64,000 bases of DNA from assembly GCA_963849325.1 (NCBI GenBank), contig CAWKHF010000005.1, positions 1,088,001 through 1,152,000 of the forward strand. The letters are read 5' to 3'. The translations under genes were made by a program, and so were the position numbers. The notes below the pieces were generated by a model, which had not been told where the DNA came from, did not search any database, and worked only from the letters and a program-made list of their open reading frames with translations. This document shows positions 18,363 to 46,135 of this stretch, in pieces. The first letter of the stretch is position 1. The number at the start of each line of letters is the position of its first letter. This DNA comes from an uncultured Planctomycetota bacterium. Lineage in GTDB: Bacteria > Planctomycetota > Planctomycetia > Gemmatales > Gemmataceae.

Positions 18363-20148
18363 CTAGGGTTTGGCGATCTTCCCCTTGCGGAAGAGGTGGT
18401 CGGCGCGCTCGGCTTCCGCGGCGCTGATGAGTCCGTCGCCGTCGGCGTCGATCTGGCGAAACTCCTCGTCGGTGCCGAGAAATTCCCGACGCGATACGTC
18501 GCCGTCGTGGTTGTGGTCCATCTTGCGGAACCAGCGCGGGCCGGCGGTTCGCTCGGGCAACTGCGGCTCGTTGGCGCCCATGCGGCGGATAACGACGGCG
18601 CGCGGGGCGAACTGGTTGCCCGACGCCGGCCCTTGCCGCACGTCCACTCGATACTTGTGCGGTATCTCGCCGCGGCTGATACCGCCATCGTCGTCGCGGT
18701 CGAGCTGATCGATCAGCGAGACCATTTGCCGCAACTCGCGCAGGCTGAGCCGCCCGTCGCCGTTGGCGTCCACCAGGTCGAACAGACCCTTGCCCTGGTC
18801 CCGCACGGCCAGCGAGGCGCAGCTCCGCATGGCGCTCTCCTGCAACTCCTTCATCTTGTCCAGGTAGGCGACGATTTCCTTCTCGAACAGCTTGCCGTCG
18901 CCGTCGCGGTCCATCATCGGGAACAGGTTGCGATAGAGCGGATTTTGCTCCGCCTCCTTCTTGTCGAGGTAGCCGTTGTTATCGCGGTCGGCCATGCGGA
19001 ACTGGGCGAGATACTGCTGGCGTAGTCGAAACGCAAACTGAGGCTCCGTGGATGTGATTCCTCGGCCCAGTTCGATCTGCGTGGTGCCGAACTCCAGTAG
19101 CAAGGTCTCGTCTGATCCCGGACGAACTTGCTGGGTTCGAGGCGACGAGCGGTCCTTGGTTTGGTCCAACTCTACCGCCTTCTCCTTGTCGCTCTTGTTG
19201 CCGAGATGAACGCGGAACACCAGGTCGGGCGGCCGCTGGGCGAAGCGCGACAGTTCCTCGCTGTCCAGGGCGCCGTCCTCGTCGGCGTCGAGGCGGGCGA
19301 AGGCCGCTTCCTCCATGCCGAGATCCTGTCGGGTGAGCTTGCGGACGGCCGACCGTTTCCCCTTGGGGGCGTAGTGGTTCAACAACTCTCGGGCCAGCTG
19401 CTTGTTGCCTGGACCGGGAGTGACCATGACGAAGGGGACATCGTTGACGGGCTGCTGCTTCTCGTAGGAATAAACTGCCTCCCCTTGCGAACCGCTCGGG
19501 GCGTTGCCGCTCATCTCGCGGATGCTGACCATGTCGTCATCGTCATCGTCCAGCTTGGGCAGAAGGGCAGACGCCCGGCCCAACTCCTCGCGCGAGAGCT
19601 TGCCGTCCTTGTTGGTGTCGAGCAGGGCGAACAGCTTTTCGTTGAGAGCGTCATTGGAGAGCGGTTGAGCTCTGTCCGCATAAGTCGCACGACGAGGACT
19701 TGCTGCTGCTGCTGGAGTCCGCCCGTGCGGAACTGGAACGGCGTGGCGCCGATGCGGCGATACCAGTCGGCCAGCTCCGCGCGCGTGATCTTGCCGTCGC
19801 GGTTTTGGTCCAGCGCGCCGGGGAAGTTGGGCCGCTGGCCGACGAAATTGGGAGCGTTGTTGAACAGCACTTGCATCGGCGGCACGCGGGCCGCTTCCTC
19901 TTTGCTCAGCACGCCATCGCCGTTCTGATCCAGGTAAGCGAACAGCTTACCCATGAAATCCTCCCACACGTCGAGCAGCGGCTTGCCGTCGATGCGGACG
20001 TGGAAGCGCATCAACACCGGACCTTTGTCGCCCAGGTAAACGAAGTCCTGCACGTCGCGCTCCGGGGACAGCTTTCGGGGCGGCGCCGGCGGTCAGGCCG
20101 AAACCGAGGACGGCCAGCACGGCGGCGATCCAGAAGGGAGTTCCTCAT
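18363..20148 (-). CDS. Secreted multi-EF-hand protein (frameshifted)
   Basis: Many DxDxDG loops: DQNGDGVLSKEE, DRDNNGYLDKKE, DANGDGRLSLRE, DHNHDGDVSRRE. Confidence 0.85.
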
Positions 20149-21477
20149 GCGACCACCTCCTTGACGGGCTTGGCCGTGGGTTCGACGAGGCGGATCGGCC
20201 GGCCGACGTTGGAGTTGTTCTGCTTGCGGATGTCCAATCCCAGAGCGAGGCCGATGGTGCCGAGCAGATCGGGCACTTCCACCTTGCGTTCCTCGACGGA
20301 CATGCCGTCGGGGCTGGTCTTGCCGACGACTTGCCCGCCCTTGATGCCGCCGCCGGCCAGCACCGTGGACCAGGAGACGGCCCAGTGATCGCGGCCGGTG
20401 CGCTCCGTGGCGATCTTCGGCGTGCGGCCGAACTCGCCCATCCACACGATGAGCGTGGAGTCGAGCAGCCCCTTGGCCTTGAGGTCGTCCATCAGCGTCG
20501 CCCAGGCCGGGTCGAGCGTGCCGCTGAGCCGCTTGACCTGGTCGAAGTTCTGGTTATGCGTGTCCCAGCCGTTGAGGCTCACTTCGACGAACGGCACGCC
20601 GCGCTCGACGAGACGGCGAGCCAGCAGACAGCCCTGGCCGAACAGGTTGCGGCCGTACGGCGTCGCGCAGCTTGGCCGGCTCTTCGTCGAGGTTGAACGC
20701 CTTGACGGCGGCGGAGCGCATCATGGTGACGGCCCGCTGGTAGGCGGTGCGGTGGCTCTGGGCGGCGATGCTGGCGTGCTGGGCCAGGAAGTCCTGCTCC
20801 ATCTCATCGAGCATCTGCAAACGCGCCGCCGCGCGCTTGGCGTTGACGTCGCCGGGCAGGTCGAGGTCTTGCACGCGCAGCGCCTGGGCCACGTCGCCGC
20901 CGCGCTGCGGGCCGAGGCCGTTGCCGTTCTCGCCGACGATCAGAGGAGCGTACTGCGGCCCGAGGAAGCCGGGCGTGTAGGCGGCGGGATTGAGGAAACG
21001 GAACGGCGCGATGCTGACGAAGCTGGGCAGCTCGGCGTCGGGGCGCTCCAGCTCCTTGGCCACGAACGAGCCGAGCGGCGGATACTGGATCGGCCCGCCC
21101 GGCAGGCGGCCGGTACGGAGGTAATAGGTGGCGCGGCCGTGGTCGGCCTCCTTGGTACTCATCGAGCGGACCAGCACCATGTCTTTCATGTGCGTGGCGA
21201 GCTTGGGCAGGTGCTCGCTGATCTTGATGCCGGGCACGCTGGTGGCGATCTCCTTGTAGGGGCCGCCGTTGGCGTGGCCGGGCTTGAGATCGAAGGTATC
21301 CATCTGGCTGGGTCCGCCGGCCATCCACAGGAGGATGCACGCGCGTTTGCGTTCGGGGCTGGTGGCCGTGGCGGCGGCCAGGTTCTCCAGCCAGCCGGAC
21401 ATCGAGTAACCAATGACGCCGGCCGACGACAGCGTCAACCATTCGCGCCGCGACAGGTGATTCGAGGGGAGGGTCAT
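20145..21477 (-). CDS. DUF1501 domain protein (frameshift near 20660)
   Basis: SRREWL, LWMAGGPSQMDTFDLKP, WDTH, WMGEFGRTPKI and GRDHW. Confidence 0.9.
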
Positions 21478-21567: not shown

Positions 21568-23215
21568 TCAATGATTGAGGAAGAATTCGCCGCTGTTGAG
21601 CAGCACCCAAAACACGTCGGCCAGGGCTTGGTTGTACCGTTTGTCCTTGTCGGCCGAGGTCGCGGTAGCCTTGTCGTCGGACGAGCCGCCGCTTTCGACG
21701 TACCGGACCATGCGCGACAGTTCTTTCGGCGTCGGCTTGCGGGCCAGCGCCGCCAGGTAGAGCGTCTCGACGCGCTCGGCCGTGTCCATGAAGGGAGCGT
21801 CGAGCAGGGCGGCCAGCGTCTCGCTGCGCTCCAGGTGGGTCGCCTCGGACGTGATCTGATCCGTTCATCAGCGACAGCGCTTGCAGGATGGACGTCTGCA
21901 CCTCGGTCGCCTGGTCGCTGGTGTTGGCGAACTGGGTCAGGAAGCGGCCGCGCGCCCCTGATTGCCGAAGAACGGATTGTTGTTGCGGTTGCCCGTCTCG
22001 CGGTAGCCGGTCGCCTGGGCGACGCTGTCGAACAGTTGCTCGGCGGACAGACCGCGCAGCGGCATGCGGGCGAAATGATGCGGGTCGTCCTGGCTGTCGT
22101 GCGTGGACCGAGCTGCCGAGCTGGTAGGCCCGGCTGGCCGTGATGGCGCGGATGAGGAACTTCAAGTCGAAGTCGTGGGCGGCGAACTGGCGGGCCAGCT
22201 CGTCGAGCAGCTCGGGATGGCTGGCCGGGTGCTCGCCGCCGACCATCTCATCGACCGGGTCGATGATGCCGGTGCCGAAGAAGTAACCCCACAGGCGGTT
22301 GACCGCCGCCCGCGCGAAATAGGGGTTGTCCTTGCTGGTCATCCACTCGGCCAAGGTGGAGCGGGCGCTGGTGTTGAACTTCCATTTCGGCTGCGTGCCG
22401 TCGAGGAATGCGGCCTGCACGACGCGCTCGGTGCCGGGGATGGTCAGCTCGCGGCGGTCGGCGACCTCGCGGCCGGCGGCCACGAAATCGCCGTTTCCCT
22501 GCCGTTGCAGGCTGGCGAAGAAGGCGGCGTAAGCTCCAGAACTGATCGCGCTTCCACTCCGCGAACGGGTGATTGTGGCACTGGGCGCATTCGATCTTCA
22601 CGCCCAGAAACAGCCGCGCCGAGGCGGCGGCCAGGTTCTCCGGCTTGACCTCCTTGGCCAGGTAGAAGGCGATCGGCGTCGGTTCGCCGCCTTGCTGCCC
22701 GAAGGGATTGCGGCCCTGTCCGTTCATCGGCGCCGTGAGCAGTTCGCGCACCAGAACGTCGTAGGGCGTGTTCTGCTGGAGTTTCTTGTGCAGCCAGGCC
22801 TCGAAGCCGGGGGCGAGGAAACGCGCCTGCAAGCTCGCCGTCGTCTCGGGCAAGAGCAGGGCGCGCCAGACGTTGGTGAAGTGCGTGACGTAGCGCGGCC
22901 CGGCGAGCAGCTGCTCGACCAGGCGCTGCCGCTTGTCGGGCCGTCTTGTCGTCGAGGAAGCGGCGCACCTCGGCGACGGAGGGGATGCGTCCGGCCAGGT
23001 CGAGATAAACGCGGCGGACGAACTCGGCGTCCGTCGCCGGGGGTGCCGGCTGGACCTTGTCGGCGGCTCCAACCGTCCGCGAGGGCACGATCGATCCGAG
23101 CGGCCAGCGCCATCACGTCCGGGTCGGACGCCGCGCCGGGGGCCGCCTGTGCCGCCGTGTACAGGCCGGCCAGCGCGACACAGCCGCTCATCAGCCATAA
23201 TGGAAGACGGATCAT
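21568..23215 (-). CDS. DUF1549/DUF1553 domain protein (multiple frameshifts)
   Basis: EFVRRVYLDLAGRIP, CAQCHNHPF, NPYFARAAVNRLW, SHPELLD and WVLLNSGEFFLNH. Confidence 0.88.
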
Positions 23216-23276: not shown

Positions 23277-25237
23277 TTACGGAGCTTTCCGCCGCCGGGT
23301 ACTCTCGACGCGCGGCGCCGCGCCGAGCGACCATAACTTGACGATTCCATCGTCACTCACGGACGCCAGGTTGTTGCCGTCCGGGGCGAAGCATACGCAG
23401 CGGATGCCTCGGACGTGCCCCTCGAAGACGCGCACGGTTCGGGCGGTGGCGACGTCCCAGAGCCGCAGTTCTCCGGGGATCGCGTTCTGGTAATGCCCGC
23501 TGGCCGTCGCCAGCGTCTTGCCGTCCGGGGCGAAGGCGAGGCTGAGGAAGCCACAACGCTGCCCTTGCAGGCGGCCCTTGATTTGGCCGGTAGCGGTATC
23601 CCACAGCCGCACGGACTGGTCCCAGCTGGCCGTCGCCACCGTTTTGCCGTCCGGCGCGAACGTCACGGCCTCGACGCCCTCCCTGTGCCCTTTGAGTTCC
23701 AGCCGCAGCTTGCCCTCCACCGCGTCCCACAGCCGGGCCGTGTGGTCCTTGCTCGCCGTGGCGATCGTCTTGCCGTCCGGGGCGAACGCCACGGACAGCA
23801 CCCAGTCCGGGTGTCCCTCGAACGTCCTCACATCCTTACCTGTCGCCAGCTCCCACAGTTTCGCCGTCTTGTCGAGACTGCCCGTGACCAGCATTCGACC
23901 GTCCGGGGAGAACGCCAGCGAGTTAACGCCTCCCTTATGTCCCTTCAAAACGCGGAGGACTTTCCCCGTCGCCAGATCGCGCAGCTGGACGTTGTTGTCG
24001 AAACAGCCGGTCGCCAGCATTTTGCCGTCGGGCGAGAAGGCGACGTAGCGCAGGCCCTTCGCCTCCTGGACGGCGACGCGCTCCTTGCCCGTGGCCGGGT
24101 CCCACAGTTTCAGTTCGCCGCCCTTGTCCATGCCGCTGACCGTGGCGAGGGTCCGACCGTCGGGCGAAAGGCCGCGAACCAGCCTTGATCGGGGTGAGCC
24201 TGGAGTGTGAGCCGGGCCTTCTGCGGAAGCGCGATCGGCGTCCACAGCTTGATCGTGCGATCGAGTCCCGCGGACACGAGCCGCTTTCCGTCGGGGGAGA
24301 AGACGATGCCGGTGACGGCGTCGTTGTGACCGCGCAGCTGGCTACGCTGACTGCCGGCGGCCGGATCCCACAGGACGATCGTGTTGTCTCCGCCGCCGCT
24401 GGCCAGGGTCTTGCCCGCGGGCGAGAACACCAGGGTCATTACCTCGGCGTTATGGCCCTTGAGCGTGGACCGCTCGCTCTTGCCGGCCACGTCCCACAGT
24501 TTGATTACCTGATCGTCGCCACCGGAGGCCAGGGTCTTGCCATCCGGGCTGAAGGCCACGGCGCGAACGGCGCCTTCGTGGCCCTTGAGCGTGACAGGTT
24601 CGCCGTCGCCGGTCATCGGCCACAACTTGAGGGTGCGATCACTGCTGCCGGAAGCGAGCGTCTGGCCGTCCGGTGAGAAAGCGAGAGCGCGGATGGATGC
24701 CTTGTGGCCTTTGAGAATACGCAGCGCTTTGCCCGTGGCGGGATCCCAGAGGCGGATGGTTTTGTCGTAGCTGCCGCTGGCCAGCGTCTTACCGTCGGGA
24801 GAGAAGGCGACAGCGTAGACCCAACTGGTGTGGCCCTCCAGCGTGCGGATTTCCTTGCCGGTCGCTGCGTCCCACAGCTTGATATTCTGATCCGGACTGC
24901 CGCTGGCGAGGAGCTTGCCGTCGGGCGAAAACGCCAGGCACTGCACGGCATCGGTGTGCCCGCTGAGTCGATGCAGCAAGTCGCCGGAGGCGGCGTCGCG
25001 CAGGTGAATGGTCTGATCGTCCAGCGCGGTGGCGAGGATCTTGCCGTCGGGGGAAGAGGCCAGGGCCAGGATTTGAGGCGCCATGTTGTTGTTGGCGCCG
25101 AGCAGGTTTGTCGGCTGCGCATTGAACCGGGTCGGTTCCTCGGCCTTCGGCGTTTCCGCCTTGGTGAGCGCGAGAGGCAGACCGAGAGACAGCAGGAGCA
25201 TACCGGCGAGCATCAGCCACAACCGAAGACGGACCAT
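23277..25237 (-). CDS. Secreted WD40-repeat protein, about two beta-propellers (frameshift near 24180)
   Basis: Signal peptide; repeated GH..V..AFSPDG..LAS...D..KLWD. Confidence 0.88.
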
Positions 25238-25262
25238 GAGGAGAGACCTCCTTTGTTGTTCT

Positions 25263-28202
25263 TCACGGAGAGACCGACGTTGTCGGCGCGGCTTTCGTCA
25301 TCGTCCGCGCCGGCTGTTCGTCGGTGAGCGACCATACGCGGATGGGGAAGTCCTTGCCGCCAGCGACGGGTTTGCCGCCCTCGTTCCGCCCTCCGCCGCC
25401 AGAAACGACCTGTCGGCCGTCGGGCAAGAATTTCACGGTGCAAACGTAGCCGCTTTGTCGGAAAATCTTCCGTTGCTGCCCCGTGGCCACGTCCCAGCAG
25501 CGCACGGTGCCATCGTAGCCGCCCGACAGAAGGCTATGTCCGTCCGGCGACACGTCCAAGCAGAGAACGCCGCCAGCGTGTCCCTGGAAGGTCCGCAACA
25601 GTTTGCCGCTTTCGATGTCCCATAACTGAATGACATTCGGGCCGGCCGTGCGAACCGCCTGGTGCGCGCTGGGCATCCAGGCCACGCAGTCGGTCCCTCC
25701 CCTGGGTCCGGACTGAAATTGGCGCAGTTGTTTGCCGCTGTCCACGTCCCACAACCGCATCATGTCGTCTCGACCGCCGGACAGAAAGCGTCGGCCATCG
25801 CTTGCGAAGCGCACGCTGCGGACCCAGTTGGTGTGGCCCTCGAACTTGCGGACTTCGCGACCGTTCTCGACCTCCCACAGACGGATGGTCTTGTCCCGGC
25901 CGCCGGACAGCACGTGCCGTCCATCCGGCGCGAAATCCAGGGCGTAAATGGCGCCGACGTGGCCGTGGAAGCGCCGCAGTTCGGCGCCCGTCTCCACGTC
26001 CCACAGGAAGGCCACGCCGCCGACGCCGGCCGAAACCGCCTGCTTGCCGTCCGGCGAAAGAGCTACCGCCTGGATCTCATTGGGCTGTTCGTTCGGCCCT
26101 TTGTCCACCGGCGGCGTCTCGGCCCGGAAGACGCGGAGTTCCTTGCCGGTCTGGAAGTCCCACAATCGCGCTGACTTGTCGCCTTGCGGCCAACCGCTGC
26201 CCGAAAATAGACGACGACCATCTCGGGAAATAACCAGGCTGAACACCGGACCCGTGTGTCCGCGCAACAGACGGATCGGCGCCGGTGCCGCCTGCCAGAC
26301 CTTCACCGAGTTGTCCAGGCTGGCCGACACGAGCCGCCGGCCGTCCGCGAACAGCAATCCCGTGATCGCGTTGCCGTGGCCATTCAGTCGGCTGCGCTGG
26401 CTGCCGGTCACGGCATCCCACAAGATGATCGTGTTGTCCGCGCCGCCGCTGGCCAGGGTCTTGCCCCGCGGCGAAAACGTCAGCGTCGTTACCTCCGCCC
26501 CGTGTCCTTTCAGGGTTGCTCGCTCGCTCTGCTTCGCCACGTCCCACAGTTTGATGGTGCGATCATCGCTGCCGGAGGCCAGGGTTTTGCCGTCCGGGCT
26601 GAAGGCGAGAGCACGGATCGCGTCCTCGTGGCCCTTGAGCGTGACGGGTCCGTCCTCGCCGGTCATCGGCCACAATTTGATGGCGCGATCGCTGCTGCCG
26701 GAAGCGAGCGTCCGGCCGTCCGGTGAGAAAGCGAGCGTTCGGATGGATGCTTTGTGCCCCTTCAGAATGCGCAACAATTGGCCCGTAGCCGGATCCCACA
26801 AGTGGATGGTCTTGTCATAGCTGCCGCTGGCCAACGTCTTGCCGTCCGGCGCGAACGCGACTGTGTAGATCCAGCTGAGGTGGCCTTTCAGCGTGTGGAC
26901 CTCCTGGCCGGTCGCCGCGTCCCACAGCTTGATCTTCTGATCGGGACTGCCGCTGGCCAGGAGTTTGCCATCCGGCGAATACGCCAGGCAGGTGACGACG
27001 TCGGCATGACCCTTGAGGACGTGGCGCTGGGTCCCGGTGGCCAGCTCGCAGATCTGCACGCCACCATTCTCGCCGGCGATGGCCACGCTCTTGCCGTCGG
27101 GTGAGTACGCCAGGGCGAGGACGGGCTGCGGCTCGAAGCGGCGCTCCTGCGTCCGCAGCGTGGCCAACTCCTTGCCTTCCACCACGTCCCATAGCTTCGC
27201 CGTGCCCTCATTGTTCCCCGCGGCCAGGCGTTTGCTATCGGGGGAGAAAGCCAATCCCCAAACGGCGCCGGTCTGGTTGTCGAGGAGGGGCCGTTCCTCC
27301 AGGGTGACGGCATGCCACAACTTCACTTTGCTGTTGTCCGCCGAGGCCGCCAGCGTCTTGCCGTCGGGCGAATACCTCACGCACCTCACGCTTCCTCCCG
27401 GACCCGGCAGCGTCGTTCGCTCCTGACCCGTGGCGGCATCCCACAGCTTCACCGTGCCGTCCCAACCGGCCGTGGCGACGGTCTTGCCATCCGGGGAAAA
27501 GGTGACGAACTCCACCGCATTGGCATGTCCGGTAAGCGTCGTCTGACTTTTGCCGCCGGCCACGTCCCACAGGATGGCGCTGCGATCCGCGCTCACCGAG
27601 GCCAGCGTCTTGCCGTCGGGAGAGAAGGCCACGCACAGGACGATGCCGGTGTGCCCCTGGAGGCGCAGCCGCTGCTTTCGCGTGTCCACGTCCCAGACGG
27701 TCACGACCTTGTCCAGCCCGGCCGCCGCCAGCATCCTGCCGTCCGAGGAGAAGGCGACGGCGTTGACGCCGGCCGTGTGTCCCTCAAGGGTGGCACGCAT
27801 CGCCCCGGTCGCCGGATCGCGCAGCTTCACGGTGCCGTCGAACTCGCCGGTAGCCAGGATCTTGCCATCGGGAGAGAAAGCGACCGAGCGCACGACATGG
27901 GGCAGCGGGACCGTGACGGCCAATCGCTCCCTGGTCAGATCCCAGAGGCGAAGTTCGCCGGTTTTCGAGTTGGCGCCGCGACCGGCGGCCATTGCCAGGA
28001 GCTTGCCGTCGGGGGAGAAAGCCACGCTGTCCACGGGAAGGATACGGCCTTGAAGAGAGGTCGGATTGGGCAGGAACGACTCGGCCTCCTCGCGCGGCTT
28101 GGCCCGCGCCGCCGGCTGTTTCTTCGTCTCCGTCTGAGCGAAGTTCGACTGCGGCGCCAGCAAAAACAGACCCAAGAGCACAAGCCAACGAGAACGAACC
28201 AT
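25263..28202 (-). CDS. Secreted WD40-repeat protein, about three propellers
   Basis: 979 aa with signal peptide and about 21 WD40 repeats; paralog of its neighbours. Confidence 0.93.
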   Translation of the reverse strand: MVRSRWLVLLGLFLLAPQSNFAQTETKKQPAARAKPREEAESFLPNPTSLQGRILPVDSVAFSPDGKLLAMAAGRGANSKTGELRLWDLTRERLAVTVPLPHVVRSVAFSPDGKILATGEFDGTVKLRDPATGAMRATLEGHTAGVNAVAFSSDGRMLAAAGLDKVVTVWDVDTRKQRLRLQGHTGIVLCVAFSPDGKTLASVSADRSAILWDVAGGKSQTTLTGHANAVEFVTFSPDGKTVATAGWDGTVKLWDAATGQERTTLPGPGGSVRCVRYSPDGKTLAASADNSKVKLWHAVTLEERPLLDNQTGAVWGLAFSPDSKRLAAGNNEGTAKLWDVVEGKELATLRTQERRFEPQPVLALAYSPDGKSVAIAGENGGVQICELATGTQRHVLKGHADVVTCLAYSPDGKLLASGSPDQKIKLWDAATGQEVHTLKGHLSWIYTVAFAPDGKTLASGSYDKTIHLWDPATGQLLRILKGHKASIRTLAFSPDGRTLASGSSDRAIKLWPMTGEDGPVTLKGHEDAIRALAFSPDGKTLASGSDDRTIKLWDVAKQSERATLKGHGAEVTTLTFSPRGKTLASGGADNTIILWDAVTGSQRSRLNGHGNAITGLLFADGRRLVSASLDNSVKVWQAAPAPIRLLRGHTGPVFSLVISRDGRRLFSGSGWPQGDKSARLWDFQTGKELRVFRAETPPVDKGPNEQPNEIQAVALSPDGKQAVSAGVGGVAFLWDVETGAELRRFHGHVGAIYALDFAPDGRHVLSGGRDKTIRLWEVENGREVRKFEGHTNWVRSVRFASDGRRFLSGGRDDMMRLWDVDSGKQLRQFQSGPRGGTDCVAWMPSAHQAVRTAGPNVIQLWDIESGKLLRTFQGHAGGVLCLDVSPDGHSLLSGGYDGTVRCWDVATGQQRKIFRQSGYVCTVKFLPDGRQVVSGGGGRNEGGKPVAGGKDFPIRVWSLTDEQPARTMTKAAPTTSVSP

Positions 28203-28269
28203 GAACGAACCTCCTTCTCTCGATACCTACCCATTCCTCGTCGTCGATCTGTTCCGCTCGCGGCCCCAA

Positions 28270-31194
28270 TTACTTTCGCACGGCCGCTTTCTTCATGGCC
28301 TGTGGCGGCGGTTCGTCGGTGAGCGACCAGACGCGGATGGGGAAGTCCGTGCCGCCGGCGACGTACTTGCCGCCGCCCTCTCCCCGTCCTCCGCCGGCGG
28401 TGATGGCCTGTCGGCCGTCGGGCGAGAACTTCACGACCCAAACGAAGCCGGTTTGTCGGAAGAGCTTGCGTTGTTGTCCCGTGGCCGCATCCCACCAGCG
28501 CACCGTGCCGTCGTAGCCGCATGACAGGATACTGTGGCCGTCCGGCGCGGCATCGACGGAAGTGACGCCGCCCGCGTGCCCCTGGAAAGTCCGCACCAGT
28601 TCGCCGCTTTCGACGTTCCATAACTGAATGACGCTCCCGCCGGCCGCGCAAATGGCCTGGCGCTGGTCGGGCATCCAGGCCACGCTATGAATCCATCCCT
28701 GCGTTTGCTGGAACGAACGCAGTTGTTTGCCGCCCTCCACGTCCCACAGCCGCAGCACGCCGTCTCGACCACCGGACAGAAAACGTCGGCCGTCGCGGGC
28801 GAAACGCACGCTGCGGACCCAGTCGGTATGGCCCTCGAACTTGCGAACTTCTCGACCGTTCTCGACCTCCCACAGACGGATGGTCTTATCGCGGCCGCCG
28901 GACAGCAGATGTCGCCCGTCCGGGGCGAAGTCCAGGGCGTTGATGGCGCCGACGTGGCCGTGGAAGCGCCGCAGCTCGGCGCCGGTCTCCACGTCCCAGA
29001 GAAAGACTACGCCGCCGACGCCGGCCGAAACCGCCTGCTTGCCGTCCGGCGAAAAGGCTACCGCGCCGATCTCATTAGGCTGTTCGCGCGGCCCCTTGTC
29101 CACCGCCGACGTGACACCCCGGAAGATGCGGAGTTCCTTGCTCGTTTTCAGGTCCCATAAGCGCACCGTCTTGTCCCCCTCGGGCCAACCGCTGCCCGAG
29201 AGCAGACGACGACCATCGCGGGAAATAACCAGGCTGACTACCGGGCCGGTATGACCACGCAGCAGACGAATCGGCGTCGGCGCTGCCTGCCAGATCTTCA
29301 CCGTGTTGTCCAGGCTGGATGATACGAGCCGTCGGCCGCCGGCGAAGGTCAATCCCGTGACGGCGTTGCCGTGGCCATTCAACCGACTGCGTTGGCTGCC
29401 GGTCGCGGCGTCCCACAAGAAGATGGCGTTGTCGGCGCCGCCACTGGCCAGGGTCTTGCCGGCCGGAGAGAAGGCCAGTGTTGTTACTTCCGCTGTGTGT
29501 CTCTTCAGGGTGGCCCGCTCGCTCTTCTTCGCCATGTCCCACAGCTTGATGGTGCGATCGTCGCTGCCGGAGGCCAGGGTTTGGCCGTCTGGACTGAAGG
29601 CGAGAACCCGTATGGCGTCTTCGTGTCCCTTGAGCGTGACGGGTTCGCTGTCGCCGCTCATCGGCCACAACTTGATGGCGCGATCGCTGCTGCCGGAAGC
29701 GAGTGTCTGACCGTCCGGTGAGAAAGCCAGAGCGCGGATGGATGCTTTGTGACCCTTGAGAATACGTAGTGTTTTGCCCGTGGCGGGCTCCCATAAGCGG
29801 ATAGTTTTGTCGTAGCTGCCGCTGGCCAACGTCTTGCCGTCGGGCGTGAAGGCCAGAGCGTAGACCCAACTGCTGTGGCCCTCCAGCGTGCGAACCTCTT
29901 GGCCGGTCGCCGCGTCCCACAGCTTGATCTTCTGATCGGGACTGCCGCTAGCCAACATCTTGCCGTCCGGCGAATACGCCAGGCAAGTAACCGCGTCGGC
30001 ATGTCCCTTGAGGACGTGACGCTGAATTCCGGTGGCCAACTCGCACAGTTGCACGCTGCCGTTCTCCCCGGCGATGGCCACGCTTTGGCCGTCGGGTGAG
30101 TACGCCAGCGCGAGGACCGGCTGCGGCTCGAAGCGGCGTTCCTTTGTCCGCAGCGTGGCCAACTCCTTGCCTTCCGCCACGTCCCACAGCTTCGCCGTGC
30201 CCTCGTTGCATCCCGTAGCTAAGCGTTTACTATCGGGAGAGAAGGCCAATCCCCAAACAGAGGGAGTCTGGTTGTCGAGGAGAATTCGTTCCTCCAGGGT
30301 GACGGCATCCCACAGTTTCACCTGGCGGTTGTTTCCCGAGGCCGCCAACGTCTTGCCGTCGGGCGAATACCTCACGCACATCACGCTTCCCCCCGGCCCA
30401 GGCAGCGTCTTTCGCTCCTGACCCGTGGCGGCATCCCACAGCTTCACCGTGCCGTCCCAACTGGCCGTGGCGACCGTCTTGCCATCCGGGGAAAAGGTGA
30501 CGAACTCCACGCCATTGGCATGTCCGGTAAGCGTCGTCCGACTTTTGCCGCCGGCCACGTCCCACAAGAGGGCGCGTCGATCGCGGCCGACCGAGGCCAG
30601 CGTCTTGCCGTCGGGAGAAAAGGCGACGCAAAAGACCCGGTCGCTATGCTCCTGGAGGCGCAGCCGCTGCTTTCGCGTGTCCACGTCCCAGACCGTCACA
30701 ACGTTGTCCAGCCCAGCCGCCGCCAGCATCTTGCCGTCCGGCGAGAAGGCGACGCCATTCACCCCGGCCGTGTGTCCGCGCAGGGTGGCGCGAACCGCCC
30801 CCGTAGCCGGGTCGCGCAGCTGCACCGTGTTGTCCAATTCGGCGGTAGCCAGCACCTTGCCGTCGGGGGAAAAGGCGACCGAGCGCACGATGTGGGGCAC
30901 CGGGACCGTGGCGATCCGTCGATCCTTGTTTAGGTCCCACAGGTGAAGCTCGCCTATCGATTGTCCGCCCCGACCGCCGACCATCGCCAGGAGCTTGCCG
31001 TCGGGCGAAAACGCCACGCTGTCCACGGTGAGAACGCGACCCTGGAGAGCAGCGGGATTGGGCAGAAACGACTCGGCCTCCTCTTGGGACTCGGCCTTCG
31101 CCGCCGACTGCTTCTTCGCCTCCGTCTGAGCGAGGTTGGGTTGCGGCGCCAGCACGAACAGACCCGCGAGCACAAGCCAACGAGAACGAACCAT
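28270..31194 (-). CDS. Secreted WD40-repeat protein, about three propellers
   Basis: 974 aa, colinear with 25263-28202. Confidence 0.93.
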   Translation of the reverse strand: MVRSRWLVLAGLFVLAPQPNLAQTEAKKQSAAKAESQEEAESFLPNPAALQGRVLTVDSVAFSPDGKLLAMVGGRGGQSIGELHLWDLNKDRRIATVPVPHIVRSVAFSPDGKVLATAELDNTVQLRDPATGAVRATLRGHTAGVNGVAFSPDGKMLAAAGLDNVVTVWDVDTRKQRLRLQEHSDRVFCVAFSPDGKTLASVGRDRRALLWDVAGGKSRTTLTGHANGVEFVTFSPDGKTVATASWDGTVKLWDAATGQERKTLPGPGGSVMCVRYSPDGKTLAASGNNRQVKLWDAVTLEERILLDNQTPSVWGLAFSPDSKRLATGCNEGTAKLWDVAEGKELATLRTKERRFEPQPVLALAYSPDGQSVAIAGENGSVQLCELATGIQRHVLKGHADAVTCLAYSPDGKMLASGSPDQKIKLWDAATGQEVRTLEGHSSWVYALAFTPDGKTLASGSYDKTIRLWEPATGKTLRILKGHKASIRALAFSPDGQTLASGSSDRAIKLWPMSGDSEPVTLKGHEDAIRVLAFSPDGQTLASGSDDRTIKLWDMAKKSERATLKRHTAEVTTLAFSPAGKTLASGGADNAIFLWDAATGSQRSRLNGHGNAVTGLTFAGGRRLVSSSLDNTVKIWQAAPTPIRLLRGHTGPVVSLVISRDGRRLLSGSGWPEGDKTVRLWDLKTSKELRIFRGVTSAVDKGPREQPNEIGAVAFSPDGKQAVSAGVGGVVFLWDVETGAELRRFHGHVGAINALDFAPDGRHLLSGGRDKTIRLWEVENGREVRKFEGHTDWVRSVRFARDGRRFLSGGRDGVLRLWDVEGGKQLRSFQQTQGWIHSVAWMPDQRQAICAAGGSVIQLWNVESGELVRTFQGHAGGVTSVDAAPDGHSILSCGYDGTVRWWDAATGQQRKLFRQTGFVWVVKFSPDGRQAITAGGGRGEGGGKYVAGGTDFPIRVWSLTDEPPPQAMKKAAVRK

Positions 31195-31271
31195 GAACGA
31201 ACCTCCTTCAATCGAGACGTGTCCTCTTCTCGTCGTCGATCCGTCCCTCTCACTGACGCTCGCGGCCCCCG

Positions 31272-34200
31272 TTACTTTCGCGCGGCCGCTTTCTTCATGG
31301 TCCGCGCCGGCGGTTCGTCGGCGAGCGACCAGACGCGGATGGGGAAGTCCGTGCCGCCGGCGACGTACTTGCCGTCGCCCGCACTCCGCCCTCCGCCGGC
31401 GGTGAAGGCCTGTCGGCCGTCGAGAGAGAACTTCACGGCCCGCGTGAAATAGTTATGCGGGAAAAGTTTGCGCTGCTGGCCGGTGTCCGCGTCCCACAAG
31501 CGCACGGAGAAATCGTAGCCGCACGACAGAATCCGATGGCCGTCCGGCGACACGTCCACGCCGGTGACGCCGTAGACGTGCCCCTGGAAGGTCCGCAGCA
31601 ACTCGCCGCGCTCGACGTCCCACAACTGCAAGACGCTGCCGCCGGCCCCGCAGACGGCCCGGCGATTGTCGGGCATCCAGGCCACGCACTCCGTCCATCC
31701 CTTCGGTCCGGCCTGGAACGAACGCAGTGGTTTGTCCTTCTCGATGTCCCACAAGCGCATCATCCCATCTCGGCCGCCGGACAGGAAGCGCCGGCCGTCG
31801 CCTGCCAAGCGCACACTGCGGACCCATTCCGTATGTCCCTCGAACTTACGAACCTGACGGCCGGTCTTGACGTCCCAGAGACGGATGCTCTTGTCCTCCC
31901 CAGCGGAGAGCACGTGCCGTCCGTCCGGTGCGAAGTCGAGTCCGGAAACGATGCCGGCGTGGCCGTGGAAACGTCGCCGTTCCGCGCCTGTCTCCACGTC
32001 CCACAGGATCACGACACCGCCGACGCCGGCCGAGACGGCTTGCTTGCCGTCCGGCGAAAAAGCCACGGCCTCGATCTGATGGGGTTGTTCTCCCGCTCGA
32101 AAGACGCGAAGTTCCTTGCCCGTTTTCAGATCCCATAAGCGCACCGTCTTGTCCCCCTCGGGCCAACCGCTGCCCGAGAGCAGACGACGACCATCGCGGG
32201 AAATAACCAGGCTGATCACCGGGCCGGTATGTCCGCGCAGCAGACGAATCGGCGCCAGTGCCGCCCGCCAGATCTTTACCGTATTGTCCAGGCTGGATGA
32301 TACGAGCCGTCGGCCGTCCGCGAACCTCAAGCCCGTGACGGCGTTGCTGTGGCCATTCAATCGACTGCGTTGGCTGCCGGTCGCGGCGTCCCAAAGCAGG
32401 ATGGCGTTGTCGGCGCCGCCGCTGGCCAGGGTCTTGCCCGCGGGCGAGAAGGCCAGCGTCATGACCTCGGCGTTGTGGCCCTTGAGCGTGGCCCGCTCGC
32501 TCTTGCCGGCCACGTCCCACAACTTGATTACCTGATCGTCGCCGCCGGAGGCCAGCGTTTTGCCATCCGGGCTGAAGGCCAGGGTGCGAATCGCGCCTTC
32601 ATGTCCCTTGAGCGTGACGGGTTCGCCGTCGCCGCTCATCGGCCACAATTTGATGGCGCGATCGCTGCTGCCGGAAGCGAGCGTCTGGCCGTCCGGTGAG
32701 AAAGCGAGAGCTCGGATGGATGCTTTGTGCCCCTTGAGAATACGCAGCAATTTGCCCGTGAGGGGATCCCAGAGGCGGATGGTTTTGTCGTAGCTGCCGC
32801 TGGCCAGCGTCTTGCCGTCGGGCGTGAAGGCCAGAGCGTAGACCCAACTGCTGTGGCCCTCCAGCGTGCGGATTTCCTGGCCGGTCGCCGCGTCCCACAG
32901 CTTGATCTTCTGATCGGGACTGCCGCTGGCCAGGAGTTTGCCGTCCGGCGAATACGCCAGGCAAGTAACCACGTCGGCATGTCCCTTGAGGACGTGACGC
33001 TGAATTCCGGTGGCCAGCTCGCACATCTGCACGCTGCCGTTCTCGCCGGCGATGGCCACGCTCTTACCGTCGGGCGAAGAGGCCAGCGCGAGGACCGGCT
33101 GCGGCTCGAAGCGACGCTCCCTCACCGGCCGCACTGTGGCCAACTCCTTGCCTTCCGTCACGTCCCACAGCTTCACCGTCCCCTCATTATTCCCTGCCGC
33201 CAGGCGTTTGCTATCGGGAGAGATGGCCAATCCCCAAACGGTGGAAGTCTGGTTGTCGAGGAGGGTCCGTTCCTCCAGGGTGACGGCATCCCACAGCTTC
33301 ACCTGACCATTGCCTCCCGAGGCCGCCAGCGTCTTGCCGTCTGGCGAATATTTCACGCACATCACGCTTCCTCCCGGACCCGGCAGCGTCTTTTGCTCCT
33401 GGCCCGTGGCGGCATCCCAGAGTTTCACCCGACCATCCCAACTGGACGTGGCGATGGTCTTGCCATCCGGGGAAAAGGTGACGCACTCCACCGCATTGGC
33501 ATGTCCGGCAAGAGTGGTCCGGACCTTGCCCGTGCCCGCATCCCACAGGATGGCGCTGCGATCCTTGCTCGCCGAGGCCAACGTCTTGCCGTCGGGAGAG
33601 AAGGCCACGCACAGGACCATGTCGGTGTGTCCCTGCAAGCGCAGCCGTTGCTTTCGCGTGTCCACGTCCCAGACGGTCACGACCTTGTCCAGCCCGGCCG
33701 CCGCCAGCATCCTGCCGTCCGGCGCGAAGGCGACGGCGTTGACGCCGATCGTGTGCCCCTCAAGGGCGGCACGCATCGCCCCGGTCGCCGGGTCGCGTAG
33801 CTTCACGGTGCCGTCGAACTCGCCGGTAGCCAGGATCTTGCCATCGGGAGAGAAGGCCACCGAGCGCACGACATGAGGCAGCGGGACCGTGACGGCCAGT
33901 CGATCTTTGTTGATGTCCCACAGACGAAGCTCGCCCGCTCCCGAGTTGACGCCGCGACCGGCGGCCATGGCCAGGAGCTTGCCGTCGGGGGAGAAAGCCA
34001 CGCTGTCCACGGGAAGGATGCGGCCCTGAAGAGAGGTTGGATTGGGCAGGAACGACTCGGCCTCTCCTTGCGTCTCCGTCTTCGCCGCCGGCTGCTTCTT
34101 CGCCTCGGTGTCGCCGGCCGGCTTCGTTTCCGTCTGGGCCAGGTTCGGCCGCAGCGCCAGCAACAGCAGACCGGCCAGTATGAGTATCCCTCTTCCCGAC

Positions 34201-35300
34201 CGCGACAATTGTTTGGGAGCGCCACCGTCCATGATGAGTCTCAACCTCCGTTTGAGTAGTTCGATGCCGGCCAGGCCACTCGCCATCGCCGGCAGAGGCC
34301 AGCGATCCTCCGCCAGGAAATCGAGGGTGTTGAGGATGGCAGCGGCATAAGTCCGCGCCGGCACCTCGCCGACCACCCAGGCATCGCAGCATTCTTCCTC
34401 GTGGACGTGCAGGCGCCGGCGAGCCAGCCACACTACAGGATACCACCAATACAGCGCCGAGACGACAAGCTCCAACCAGCGCACCCAGTGGTCGCGCCGC
34501 CGGACGTGCGCCAGCTCGTGCGCCAGCAGACTGCCGCGCTCCGCCGGATCGAGTCGTTCGAGCAGCTTTGTCGGGAAGAAGATCCGCACTCGGCCAACCG
34601 CCGCCCACACCAGCGGCGGCAGCGGTCCCGGCAACAGCCCTATCTCCGGGCAGCGTCTTAACCCCATGTGTCGGGCCAGGCAACGGGCCTGCTCCTGAAC
34701 GTCGGCGTCCGCGGGGCGAGCGTACCGCAACAGACGCTGAAAGCGGACGATGTACGTGCTGCCCCAGGCGAGCCAGACCGCGACCCCCGCCAGCCAAACG
34801 ACGCCGAGCAGGGAAACACACCCTTGCAAGCTCCGAGACTGCGGCTCGATGCCCTTCGCCGACGGAATCGCCGCAGGGGCGGAGGCCGGCTTCACCAGGG
34901 TATATTCGATGTCCGACGGGTCGAGGGCGGGCGGCGCGCTCGCCTTCTTTCGCTGCGGAAGCCCTGCTCTCGCCGGCTTGACCCGGAGAGGAACCAAGGG
35001 CGCCGCTCCTTCGGCTTCGCTCGTCCAAAGGATCGGCTCGGCCGGATCGGAAGAGGGCAGCGTGACAATCACGTGCTCCATTGCCGCCGGCGCCATCTCG
35101 GCGGGAGCAGCCGGTTCTTGCGGCAGATGGGCGACGGTCACGGGCCACAAGGGCGGCGTGACGAGTTTGAGCAGGACCAGCAGCCAGAGGCCATGCAGCA
35201 CTGCGGGCCGCCGGCAGAATCGGCCGACGAGCACGGCGACAAGAGCGAGCACGCCGGCACAGACGGCGTTGGCCAGACCGATAGGTACGAGCGCGGACAT
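31272..35300 (-). CDS. BlaR1/M56 metallopeptidase fused to a triple WD40 propeller
   Basis: LWLLVLLKLVTPP, LAHELAHVRRRDH, WWYPVVW, EECCD and LKRRL, then a TM helix and WD40 repeats. Confidence 0.93.
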   Translation of the reverse strand: MSALVPIGLANAVCAGVLALVAVLVGRFCRRPAVLHGLWLLVLLKLVTPPLWPVTVAHLPQEPAAPAEMAPAAMEHVIVTLPSSDPAEPILWTSEAEGAAPLVPLRVKPARAGLPQRKKASAPPALDPSDIEYTLVKPASAPAAIPSAKGIEPQSRSLQGCVSLLGVVWLAGVAVWLAWGSTYIVRFQRLLRYARPADADVQEQARCLARHMGLRRCPEIGLLPGPLPPLVWAAVGRVRIFFPTKLLERLDPAERGSLLAHELAHVRRRDHWVRWLELVVSALYWWYPVVWLARRRLHVHEEECCDAWVVGEVPARTYAAAILNTLDFLAEDRWPLPAMASGLAGIELLKRRLRLIMDGGAPKQLSRSGRGILILAGLLLLALRPNLAQTETKPAGDTEAKKQPAAKTETQGEAESFLPNPTSLQGRILPVDSVAFSPDGKLLAMAAGRGVNSGAGELRLWDINKDRLAVTVPLPHVVRSVAFSPDGKILATGEFDGTVKLRDPATGAMRAALEGHTIGVNAVAFAPDGRMLAAAGLDKVVTVWDVDTRKQRLRLQGHTDMVLCVAFSPDGKTLASASKDRSAILWDAGTGKVRTTLAGHANAVECVTFSPDGKTIATSSWDGRVKLWDAATGQEQKTLPGPGGSVMCVKYSPDGKTLAASGGNGQVKLWDAVTLEERTLLDNQTSTVWGLAISPDSKRLAAGNNEGTVKLWDVTEGKELATVRPVRERRFEPQPVLALASSPDGKSVAIAGENGSVQMCELATGIQRHVLKGHADVVTCLAYSPDGKLLASGSPDQKIKLWDAATGQEIRTLEGHSSWVYALAFTPDGKTLASGSYDKTIRLWDPLTGKLLRILKGHKASIRALAFSPDGQTLASGSSDRAIKLWPMSGDGEPVTLKGHEGAIRTLAFSPDGKTLASGGDDQVIKLWDVAGKSERATLKGHNAEVMTLAFSPAGKTLASGGADNAILLWDAATGSQRSRLNGHSNAVTGLRFADGRRLVSSSLDNTVKIWRAALAPIRLLRGHTGPVISLVISRDGRRLLSGSGWPEGDKTVRLWDLKTGKELRVFRAGEQPHQIEAVAFSPDGKQAVSAGVGGVVILWDVETGAERRRFHGHAGIVSGLDFAPDGRHVLSAGEDKSIRLWDVKTGRQVRKFEGHTEWVRSVRLAGDGRRFLSGGRDGMMRLWDIEKDKPLRSFQAGPKGWTECVAWMPDNRRAVCGAGGSVLQLWDVERGELLRTFQGHVYGVTGVDVSPDGHRILSCGYDFSVRLWDADTGQQRKLFPHNYFTRAVKFSLDGRQAFTAGGGRSAGDGKYVAGGTDFPIRVWSLADEPPARTMKKAAARK

Positions 35301-35325
35301 GATGTGGTCCTCGGCGCGAGGGGTG

Positions 35326-35724
35326 TCACTTCGATTTGTTCTTGCGATCGAGCTGGTCGATAAGGTCGCGCAGTTCGCGGCGTTCCCTGGAGGACAGCGC
35401 CTCGGCGCGGACCAGGTGCGTCAGCAGCGGCGCCATCAGTCCGCCGCACAGCTTCTCGGCCATGGCCCGCAAGCGATGGCCGACGAGCGTGTCGCGGTCG
35501 GTGCGGGCCCGGAAGCGGTGAGCGTGGCCGCTGCGGTCGCGTTCGACGTGGCCCTTGCCTTCCAGGCGTTCGAGCAGCTTCTGCACCGTCGCATAGTGGG
35601 CGTCGTTGCCCTCGGGATAAAGAACGTCGGTCAACTGGCGAATGTTGGCCGAGCCGCGGTCCCACAGCACTTGCAGGACCGCCAACTCGGCGTCGGTGAC
35701 GTCTTGCGGGACTTTCTCCGTCAT
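35326..35724 (-). CDS. BlaI/MecI/CopY family repressor
   Basis: TDAELAVLQVLW, YATVQKLLERLEGKGHV and LSSRERRELRDLI. Confidence 0.93.
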   Translation of the reverse strand: MTEKVPQDVTDAELAVLQVLWDRGSANIRQLTDVLYPEGNDAHYATVQKLLERLEGKGHVERDRSGHAHRFRARTDRDTLVGHRLRAMAEKLCGGLMAPLLTHLVRAEALSSRERRELRDLIDQLDRKNKSK

Positions 35725-35761: not shown

Positions 35762-35811
35762 AGACAATGCGTCTGAGAGATGAGACTAAGACAGGTTGTC
35801 TGGGAAGTCAA
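35762..35811 (-). promoter_or_regulatory. sigma70 promoter with two putative BlaI-type operators
   Basis: TTGACT-17 nt-TAGTCT; palindromes AGACAGGTTGTCT (35789-35801) and AGACAATGCGTCT (35762-35774). Confidence 0.75.
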
Positions 35812-43447: not shown

Positions 43448-43592
43448 TCTCGTGGGGTCATGGTCTCCCGTCAGCCGCAAACGATCTCAAGAAAAGTACG
43501 TCGATTCTCATGGCGTAGTCCCCGGCGCGGCTGTATGGTAAAGAGGTGCCCTGCCGGAACCTCCCGCCTGGCGTCGCATTGGAATAGGCTCC

Positions 43593-46112: not shown

Positions 46113-46135
46113 GACAAAGAAAAGCGTAACCGGCT

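Follow-up and report, generated by a model that had tools for sequence, protein, structure and literature searches.

Why should a gene for a BlaR1-type sensor be followed by three genes that repeat its presumed sensing half without its protease? The question is posed by a 64,000-nucleotide stretch of DNA (the window) from a soil planctomycete, an uncultured Gemmataceae bacterium. An earlier note had read in it a blaI gene, an M56 domain joined to three WD40 propellers, two colinear three-propeller copies, and a two-propeller copy. This gene order is borne out (Table 1). Gene 4 does encode two propellers, although the second is of a separate type, P4, and not a copy of propeller 3.

Table 1. 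Positions of the features in the window; the coordinates of the two shared tracts are approximate.
Feature	Position	Strand	Description
Two dyads, CAGACnnnnTGTCT	35789-35802 and 35762-35775 (span 35762-35802)	-	upstream of blaI
blaI	35326-35724	-	BlaI/MecI-family winged-helix repressor, 132 aa; PF03965, E 2e-24
Gene 1	31272-35300	-	M56 (BlaR1-type) zinc-protease membrane sensor, 1342 aa, 21 WD40 blades
Gene 1 ectodomain	L1-P1 34031-33129; P2 33116-32241; P3 32240-31275	-	
P1 block, genes 1 and 3 closest	gene 1 ~33585-34085; gene 3 ~27609-28109	-	
P2 tract, genes 1 and 4	gene 1 ~32462-32962; gene 4 ~24439-24940	-	DNA identity 0.89-0.94; derived by hand from alignment columns
Gene 2	28270-31194	-	protease-less copy, predicted exported, 974 aa, 21 blades
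Gene 2 modules	signal peptide-L1-P1 31047-30139; P2 30138-29263; P3 29262-28273	-	
Gene 3	25263-28202	-	protease-less copy, predicted exported, 979 aa; signal peptide-L1-P1-P2-P3, 21 blades
Gene 4	23277-25237	-	protease-less, two propellers, 14 blades, one frameshift
Gene 4 modules	signal peptide-L2-P2 25129-24227; P4 about 24211-23280	-	
Chimeric 5' end of gene 4	25211-25262	-	PSD start joined to gene 1 helix
PSD gene (PSCyt2/DUF1549 + PSD1/DUF1553)	21568-23215	-	located by tblastn with the intact G006 orthologue
DUF1501 gene	20145-21477	-	closes the conserved gene string; one frameshift

The sensor, its promoter and its relatives

Residues 148-353 of the gene 1 product match the M56 family (PF05569, E 6.9e-30), and the zinc motif HExxH, HELAH at residue 261, is kept in all four orthologues checked. 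Hydropathy places hydrophobic segments at residues 7-25, 33-56, 160-185 and 365-389, which reproduces the layout of BlaR1 and MecR1: four segments, of which the last separates the protease loop from the sensor domain. The membrane orientation is presumably that of the BlaR1 family. The C-terminal 950 residues form 21 WD40 blades and do not resemble a penicillin-binding (class D β-lactamase-like) sensor domain. Genes 1-3 each encode 21 blades, equivalent to three seven-bladed propellers, and genes 2 and 3 are colinear with the gene 1 ectodomain and lack M56. An AlphaFold model of the gene 2 product is all-β with 83 strands (mean pLDDT 86.2), and its best solved match is the Nostoc protein 2YMU (E 1.8e-52, 41% identity); blade counts, model and match all describe seven-bladed WD40 propellers. 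Against solved chains, phmmer matched the blaI product to Staphylococcus aureus BlaI (1sd4, E 5e-9) and to MecI and returned no match for the M56 part at E<=0.01.

The locus shares with the staphylococcal BlaI/BlaR1 and MecI/MecR1 systems an adjoining BlaI-family repressor gene, an M56 HExxH motif between segments 3 and 4 with the sensor domain after the last, and two dyad operators (here predicted) at the promoter. It differs in having three WD40 propellers instead of a penicillin-binding fold, in its dyad (AGAC-N5-GTCT) and in the genes downstream, PSD and DUF1501 rather than a β-lactamase or PBP2a. Staphylococcal BlaI/MecI dyads are of the TACA/TGTA type. That system, too, has protease-less relatives of its sensor domain, the class D β-lactamases. 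We infer that gene 1 works like BlaR1, yet is no β-lactam sensor. The term one-component sensor, used in the earlier note, does not suit it, because BlaI/BlaR1 is a two-protein system.

The two dyads upstream of blaI overlap and come after a TTGAC -35 box, and both dyads and layout are kept in all seven aligned upstream regions of orthologous loci; no such dyad precedes genes 2-4 or PSD in the window. The gene for a repressor of the BlaI/MecI family (PF03965, 1sd4 match) lies next to dyads at its own putative promoter, and the dyads and the TTGAC box are likely, as judged from sequence, to be the operon promoter with candidate BlaI operators. A promoter scan returned no sigma-70-like site; the conserved TTGAC box is visible by eye in the alignment. 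Terminator-like sites numbered 17 (12.1 +/- 3.9 in shuffles), none of them on the coding strand in the intergenic gaps.

The PSD gene of the window is broken into at least five frame pieces and is the orthologue of the gene directly after the sensor in G006, G007 and the metagenome contig L111. The PSD orthologues of L111 and G006 carry PF07583 and PF07587, and the next gene carries PF07394 (E about 1e-108); the window copies match these orthologues piecewise, which identifies the pair as PSD and DUF1501. One published account has DUF1501 genes often neighbouring WD40 genes in Planctomycetes (PMC5587647). Indel errors occur in the assembly, as where pheT is split over two frames, so that single-base details are unsafe, including the 1-nt shift near 24160-24172 through which gene 4 reads in two frames.

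Gene 1 belongs among the M56-WD40 fusions of Gemmataceae and other Planctomycetota, which databases name 'M56 family metallopeptidase' or 'WD40 repeat protein/beta-lactamase regulating signal transducer'. Roughly nine-tenths of the 120 top-ranked relatives listed combine PF05569 with WD40 families, at 822-2345 aa, and a literature search found no publication on the fusion. The accessible portions of two papers describe planctomycete ECF sigma-WD40 and Ser/Thr kinase-WD40 proteins that likewise join a cytoplasmic signalling module through a membrane span to long periplasmic WD40 arrays; free ectodomain paralogues and propeller swapping go unmentioned in those portions (PMC11032199, PMC8567305). 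The output here differs, being a protease predicted to act on a repressor.

The genome contigs searched contained 11 M56-WD40 loci, each with a lone sensor. Among the loci examined, tandem protease-less copies occur only in this window and in L111, which comes from another species and carries blaI, a P1-P2-P3 sensor, free P1-P2-P4 and PX-P2-P3 proteins, PSD and DUF1501 (sensor versus gene 1, 67% protein identity and dS 0.88). In L135 the sensor is adjoined by an older colinear free paralogue, making two clear arrays and one older pair; many sensors have no free copy, and in G006 and G007 the sensor stands alone. Second WD40 genes in L152 and L023 were rejected as ectodomain paralogues (at most 31% identity; one is a kinase). 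The 120 matches listed in a search with gene 2 include no protein that lacks the protease and exceeds 60% identity; since even genes 2 and 3 and the L111 free copies are missing from that list, it does not count against further free copies.

Mis-joined repeats could also yield an array or a mosaic, and the assembly is indeed prone to indels, while no short contig of a public sequencing run bridges a gene junction. We nevertheless regard an artefact as very improbable, since the copies diverge by 17-19% in DNA, too much for confusion during assembly, and an independent metagenome contig is organised identically. That run contains 6% of the sampled words and yielded 29 short contigs, and it has no bearing on alternative mosaics or on absence. 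Six of the contigs agree with the window without a difference over stretches of 151-264 bases, in genes 1 and 3 and at the blaI junction, a weak argument because the run may be the source sample.

Tandem duplication and exchange at two scales

The starts of the protease-less genes record their origin. The ribosome site and first nine codons of gene 4 resemble the 5' end of PSD (39 of 43 aligned bases agree, with one 2-nt gap), and the codons that follow align with gene 1's last membrane helix (27/36). Genes 2 and 3 start in the same chimeric way, their first 16 coding bases being those of the PSD start of L111. Such a chimera of PSD start and sensor helix is the junction of a tandem duplication; a duplication whose unit reached from the last membrane helix of the sensor into the first PSD codons created the protease-less genes. 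Behind the PSD start this helix would now act as a signal peptide, and further duplication gave the present array. Every copy opens with a strong AAGGAGG ribosome site and a start codon, followed by an N-terminus that resembles a signal peptide; given these features and dN/dS values of 0.23-0.30, the copies look like expressed, exported proteins.

The earlier note had also described patchy identity, and all four motif-sharing patterns that it quoted are present in the translations: NPTSLQGRILPVDSV..AAGRG is common to genes 1 and 3, GHSSWVYALAFTPDG to genes 1 and 2, and GGDDQVIKLWDVAGKSER..GHNAEVMTL to genes 1 and 4, and genes 2 and 3 share a VDKGP.EQPNEI loop that is deleted in gene 1. The closest pair shifts along the genes beyond chance (permutation p<1e-4), by tests written for this analysis. 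The 650 two-against-one sites among genes 1-3 split 227/208/215 over the three possible pairs and fall into 316 runs against 434 +/- 12 expected, with none of 10000 shuffles reaching the observed value. With a fourth sequence as outgroup the split is 34/37/23, in 43 runs against 62.5 +/- 4.5 (0/10000), and with the G007 orthologue it is 49/28/52 (p=0.013); global p values for the three pairs are <0.0002, 0.0004 and 0.0026. Propeller 1 is most alike in genes 1 and 3, with DNA identity in the P1 block of 0.83-0.95 for genes 1/3 versus 0.74-0.91 for genes 1/2; portions of propellers 2 and 3 make genes 1 and 2 the closest pair. Over 1763 nt, gene 4 follows the 3' two thirds of the ectodomain of the G006 sensor colinearly, at 77.6% DNA identity, and its propeller-2 core has 88-95% protein identity to gene 1, with flanks that follow the G006 orthologue. 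On the evidence of these alignments, exchange among the copies is real and involves the sensor gene itself.

A second scale of exchange emerges from the relatives. The G006 sensor is PX-P2-P4, P0007 is P1-P2-P3, and the sensors of G007 and six further loci are P2-P3, so that the ectodomain is modular across the relatives, with an N-terminal P1, PX or none, a constant central P2 and a C-terminal P3 or P4; six combinations were observed. The P2 tree splits by upstream neighbour (P1-linked clade, 100/98; G007-type clade, 99/98), and the P3 of an L111 free copy joins that of the G007 sensor (100/99) rather than that of the sensor beside it on the contig. In all three trees genes 1-3 cluster by genome (P1 100/99, P2 99/97, P3 82/91), a pattern that would fit recent duplication and homogenisation equally. 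The copies and the sensor have swapped sequence through homologous recombination both as conversion tracts of a few hundred bases within this genome and as whole propellers exchanged around the conserved P2 across lineages. Protease-linked propellers vary by species and alternative propellers are housed in protease-less copies; 'reservoir of modules' thus describes them fairly, taken over evolutionary time.

Of the recurrent gene conversion that had been proposed, the exchange between copies stands; nothing points to recurrent or recent transfer, as the longest identical runs are only 50-61 bp and even the blocks of highest similarity have a dS of about 0.1-0.3. A longest identical tract of just 61 bp indicates that the exchange is old. 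In the last third of P3 the copies are as distant from each other (DNA identity 0.76-0.81) as from the G007 orthologue (0.73-0.77), which leaves their age uncertain.

Selection and the possible role of the free propellers

Purifying selection acts on all copies: dN/dS is 0.23-0.28 among genes 1-3 and 0.24-0.30 for both halves of gene 4 (against orthologous modules) and for the L111 copies. These values bear on the idea that genes 2-4 are redundant duplicates heading for loss and their mosaic functionally meaningless. Gene 4, PSD and DUF1501 are frameshifted in this assembly, and G006 and G007 manage with a lone sensor; yet the essential pheT is frameshifted too, so that the frameshifts are largely assembly errors, genes 2 and 3 stay open over 974 and 979 codons at a dS of about 0.45, both halves of gene 4 are constrained, and a second organism retains two free copies. 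We therefore consider such a neutral aftermath unlikely.

Differences between the copies cluster at blade positions 5-7, 9-10, 23, 27-28 and 35, placed by HMM register rather than by model coordinates, and these include the expected top-face loops after GH and after the Asp turn. At the putative top-face codons dN/dS is 0.27-0.51, and no 50-codon window exceeds 1 save the last, where dS is just 0.07. The suggestion that the ligand surface is being diversified thus finds no positive selection behind it. Repetitive or hypervariable WD40 proteins (2YMU, HET-E/NWD) show similar loop variation after GH and the Asp turn, but near-identical blades are lacking here (no tandem repeat scored >=50), and, unlike in HET-E/NWD, amino-acid changes are not in excess at the putative face and exchange involves genes and whole propellers, not blades.

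These data also weigh on a selected cassette system, in which the copies would be kept mainly as donors and frequent conversion would re-tool the ligand face of the sensor, as in pilE/pilS or vlsE cassettes or the hypervariable WD40 domains of fungal HET-E/NWD. Silent-cassette systems have promoterless or truncated donors and frequent unidirectional conversion into one expression site. Participation of the sensor gene in exchange would suit such a system, as would the storage of P4 and PX in free copies beside the sensor in two organisms, the concentration of differences at blade positions including the expected top-face loops, and a putative face dN/dS that is higher in pairs with the sensor (0.46-0.51) than for genes 2/3 (0.27). 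The copies are nonetheless complete genes under full-length constraint that carry a ribosome site, a start and an export signal apiece, and so are not silent cassettes; even the putative face stays below a dN/dS of 1, the short identical tracts and the residual dS make exchange rare and old, a free copy is absent beside most related sensors, and neither a recombinase or reverse transcriptase nor near-identical repeats were found nearby. A cassette system is accordingly quite improbable. Nothing in the sequence demonstrates fast or programmed switching, and the mosaic is a side effect of tandem paralogues slowly exchanging sequence, not the work of a programmed diversity generator.

The locus is thus probably a BlaI/BlaR1-type operon shaped by tandem duplication, slow exchange and purifying selection, with co-induced free propellers. 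By analogy with the family, BlaI would repress the operon through the two conserved dyads until a propeller-bound signal switched on the M56 protease, which would remove BlaI, and genes 1-4, PSD and DUF1501 would be induced together. The exported free propeller proteins would bind the sensor's own or related periplasmic partners and so tune, buffer or extend the response; they may serve as decoys or co-receptors. More speculative, and in our view doubtful, is a mix-and-match kit with P2 as recombination handle, in which P1/PX and P3/P4 would be traded through P2 between the protease-linked receptor and the free exported proteins. In this way lineages would redirect a BlaR1-type switch to new periplasmic ligands, and free copies made from the BlaI-controlled promoter would give feedback by competing or cooperating with the receptor for ligands.

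On the operon account that we favour, the locus shows duplication, gene conversion and the swapping of propellers, all over evolutionary time, in a Gemmataceae family that is widely annotated yet unstudied. Few unexplained signalling architectures are commoner in Gemmataceae than M56-WD40 proteins. The locus documents how a receptor ectodomain was freed as a putatively exported protein through one duplication junction. Because six combinations surround one constant propeller, the outer propellers are likely the specificity parts and P2 likely a constant partner site. The conserved two-dyad promoter could serve to report the signal, and the steady linkage to PSD and DUF1501 connects the sensor with one of the phylum's largest families of unknown function.

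Architecture and predicted regulation of the array

The array lies on the minus strand throughout (blaI and genes 1–4) in a window of 61–69% G+C, and the earlier note had read its domains correctly: blaI, a BlaR1-type M56 sensor with a WD40 ectodomain (gene 1), and three protease-less copies (genes 2–4). The Peptidase_M56 match of gene 1 (E 6.9e-30) falls within its first 420 residues, which also contain HELAH at residue 261; of their four hydrophobic segments, the fourth spans residues 365–389. By a blade HMM built in this analysis, genes 1–3 have 21 WD40 blades apiece. The AlphaFold model of gene 2 is all-beta (83 strands, mean pLDDT 86.2, first 37 residues disordered), and the solved structure that matches it best is 2YMU, a Nostoc protein of two propellers (E 1.8e-52). 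Genes 1–4 are separated by 77, 67 and 25 bases, with AAGGAGG at the end of each gap ahead of the ATG. The N-termini of genes 2 and 3 bear a short hydrophobic stretch, below the 19-residue membrane-helix threshold, that fits a predicted cleavable signal peptide ending ..PNLA/QTE; the stretch in gene 4 is longer. Gene 1 alone lacks nine residues of a ..VDKGP.EQPNEI.. loop between blades 15 and 16, which is kept in genes 2 and 3, the sensor of the related genome G007 and both P3-bearing proteins of the metagenome contig L111.

Features of the array, its surroundings and related loci (window positions unless a contig is named; G000 is the genome of the window)
Feature	Position	Strand	Description
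blaI	35326–35724	-	PF03965 (penicillinase-repressor family), E 2e-24; S. aureus BlaI 1sd4, E 5e-9
Gene 1	31272–35300	-	1342 aa
Gene 2	28270–31194	-	974 aa
Gene 3	25263–28202	-	979 aa
Gene 4	23277–25237	-	two frames; one-base shift near 24160–24172
PSD	21568–23215		downstream of array
Loop deletion	~32140–32200		gene 1
CAGACnnnnTGTCT dyads	35789–35802 and 35762–35775		upstream of blaI
GCCGCGAGCGTCAG	35884		part of long palindrome upstream of blaI
GCCGCGAGCGTCAG	31253		gene 1–gene 2 gap
PALP enzyme gene	8391–10373		split between two frames
pheT	11706–14377		split between two frames
Another DUF1501 gene	46750–48268		split between two frames
PSCyt1/PSCyt2/PSD1, then DUF1501	43542–48268		further planctomycete-type pair
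317-aa WD40 protein, then DUF1501	56697–59133		further planctomycete-type pair
CAGACnnnnTGTCT dyads	G000 C1:483892–484053		three times in 160 bases
CAGACnnnnTGTCT dyad	G000 C2:284889		about 750 bases upstream of another M56 gene
CAGACnnnnTGTCT dyad	G000 C7:273235		further site
Fifth relative	G000 C2:387269–391151	+	outside window; ~1290 aa
L135 pair	L135 3684–13506		1557-aa exported WD40 protein directly upstream of 1697-aa M56-WD40 sensor

The gene downstream of the array is PSD (PSCyt2/DUF1549 plus PSD1/DUF1553), followed by DUF1501, identities established from the intact orthologues and from a tblastn search of the window. Single-base indel errors are evident in the assembly (14 contigs, 84.7% complete by markers): the essential pheT, a PALP enzyme gene and another DUF1501 gene each fall into two frames, with the break at matching Pfam profile positions. 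The frameshift in gene 4 is therefore probably an artefact. By tblastn, the array's PSD gene is in at least five pieces and its DUF1501 in two. PSD has four frame changes in 1.65 kb versus about nine in the whole 64-kb window, an excess that could reflect either real decay or a locally poor consensus.

In all seven orthologous loci CAGACnnnnTGTCT overlaps a TTGAC box upstream of blaI and recurs 27 bases further downstream. Across both strands of the genome the pattern has 16 matches, where about 10 would be expected, and some of them lie close to other M56 loci; a genome-wide search placed none ahead of genes 2–4 or PSD. The dyad may be an operator type shared by several BlaI/M56 pairs of this genome. 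Since the intergenic gaps contain no terminator-like site, the simplest reading would be one BlaI-controlled transcript from blaI to DUF1501. A second element, GCCGCGAGCGTCAG, is present 48 times in the genome and, in degenerate form, in the gene 2–gene 3 gap; it looks like a REP-type dispersed element.

Related arrays and the origin of the free copies

Among 41 related genomes, a close orthologue of the M56 part is present only in G006 (66% identity) and G007 (63%), both of the same genus and both with E below 1e-140. There PSD and DUF1501 come straight after the sensor, and neither locus has a free WD40 copy. M56-WD40 fusion is a common, annotated but unstudied architecture, as sensors with 14–32 blades occur in 11 of 79 species-collection loci; PF05569 and WD40 also co-occur in about nine in ten of the best 120 database relatives of gene 1, and our literature searches found no paper on the fusion. 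Periplasmic WD40 arrays are described on planctomycete kinases and ECF sigma factors (PMC11032199, PMC8567305), and DUF1501 is described as a frequent neighbour of WD40 genes (PMC5587647). None of the 11 loci has a separate downstream WD40 gene on the sensor strand; one, L039, shows just an overlapping 387-aa frame.

A metagenome scan of 79 loci found at least one WD40 frame in 37 and two in 3. The contig L111 carries, in order, blaI, a sensor, two protease-less copies (963 and 967 aa, starting MxRxRW.. as in the window), PSD and DUF1501. At 67% identity and a dS of 0.88 between its sensor and gene 1, this contig comes from another species, so the window array has a counterpart elsewhere and is no accident of assembly. 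On contig L135 a sensor is likewise accompanied by a free ectodomain paralogue, but an older one: the two are colinear and 50% and 42% identical over two stretches of 630–650 residues. L152, one of the three two-frame loci, was rejected as an array, its second WD40 gene being unrelated.

At its N-terminus each protease-less gene can be aligned to gene 1 over the last membrane helix and the linker (RS.R..L.LAGL..LA..PNLAQTE). The 5' end of gene 4, from the ribosome site through codon nine, matches the beginning of the downstream PSD (39 of 43 bases in an alignment with a single 2-nt gap), after which its codons match the gene 1 helix (27/36). Genes 2 and 3 have a diverged form of this PSD-like start, and their first 16 coding bases equal the PSD start on L111, from another organism. 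A tandem duplication running from the sensor helix to the first PSD codons would yield exactly that junction, which is why the chimeric start can be regarded as the birth mark of the protease-less genes.

Patchy identity and propeller exchange

The earlier note had described patchy motif sharing among the genes, and all four of its patterns were found in the translations. Overall DNA identity between pairs of genes 1–3 is 0.81–0.83, with 100-base windows spanning 0.43–0.97 and the closest pair switching repeatedly along the alignment. The 650 two-against-one sites divide 227/208/215 over the three pairs and form 316 runs, versus 434 ± 12 when shuffled (0 of 10000 shuffles reach this value). 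Because region-specific rate differences could mimic such clustering, outgroups were added. With a more distant paralogue on contig C2 of the same genome (76% DNA identity), derived-state sites number 34/37/23 and fall in blocks (0 of 10000 shuffles); with the G007 orthologue they number 49/28/52 (p=0.013). By these site tests no one tree fits all segments, and a Sawyer-type test gives significant runs for all three pairs (p<0.0002, 0.0004 and 0.0026), so that the mosaic is real and statistically solid. The longest perfectly shared runs are only 50–61 bp. Values of dS per 50-codon window range from 0.07 to about 1.0, indicating that the exchanges are real and of various, mostly old ages. In the last third of P3, genes 1–3 are as distant from each other as from G007.

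When the proteins were cut into propellers and compared, the types separated sharply, with 55–90% identity within a type and 29–50% between types.

Propeller order (P1, PX, N-terminal types; P2, central; P3, P4, C-terminal types)
Order	Proteins
P1-P2-P3	genes 1, 2 and 3; the protein P0007; L111 sensor
P2-P4	gene 4
P1-P2-P4 and PX-P2-P3	the two L111 free copies
PX-P2-P4	G006 sensor
P2-P3	G007 and six further sensors
P1-P2 plus two other propellers	C2 paralogue

P2 is thus constant; around it, P1 or PX is found with P3 or P4 in every one of the four possible pairings, and two short forms also occur. The P2 tree tracks the upstream neighbour (P1-linked clade 100/98, G007-type clade 99/98), and P3 of the PX-P2-P3 copy on L111 clusters with the G007 sensor (100/99) rather than with that of its own contig. 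Genes 1–3 cluster by genome in each module tree (P1 100/99, P2 99/97, P3 82/91). Gene 4, too, is mosaic in composition. The linker, the first P2 blade (0.88) and P4 go with the G006 sensor, with 77.6% DNA identity over 1763 colinear bases, and its P2 core is 88–95% identical to gene 1 in protein. The genome of the window holds four copies of P1, five of P2, three of P3 and one of P4, and the module count found no PX in it. The fifth relative, on C2, consists of a signal anchor, L1 (the linker before P1), P1, P2 and two unrelated propellers; it has no adjoining blaI, is read in two frames, and shares 76% DNA identity with gene 2 over P1 and part of P2, rising to 0.85–0.90 at the P2 start.

Selection and the mode of exchange

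Ratios of dN/dS are 0.23–0.28 among genes 1–3, and 0.24–0.30 for the L111 copies and for each half of gene 4 when set against orthologous modules. Differences between copies cluster at blade positions 5–7 (after GH), 9–10, 23, 27–28 (after the Asp turn) and 35. Positions 5–7, 25 and 27–28 should, going by general WD40 structure and not by coordinates, lie on the top face. At these putative top-face positions dN/dS is 0.27–0.51, versus 0.13–0.16 elsewhere, a pattern that suggests loosened constraint rather than positive selection. Values peak at 0.5–0.8 in P3 blades 19–20. No tandem repeat was detected that might point to a dedicated exchange mechanism, and the window showed neither a recombinase nor a reverse transcriptase.

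The suggestion that recurrent conversion actively diversifies the ligand surface is thus unsupported, given the age of the conversion tracts and dN/dS in the purifying range. The evidence supports instead a slow evolutionary exchange: a tandem duplication that left a chimeric junction, conversion tracts of old date and swaps of whole propellers around P2. These took place inside a selectively maintained array of a sensor plus free ectodomains, in which the free copies might serve as decoys or co-receptors.
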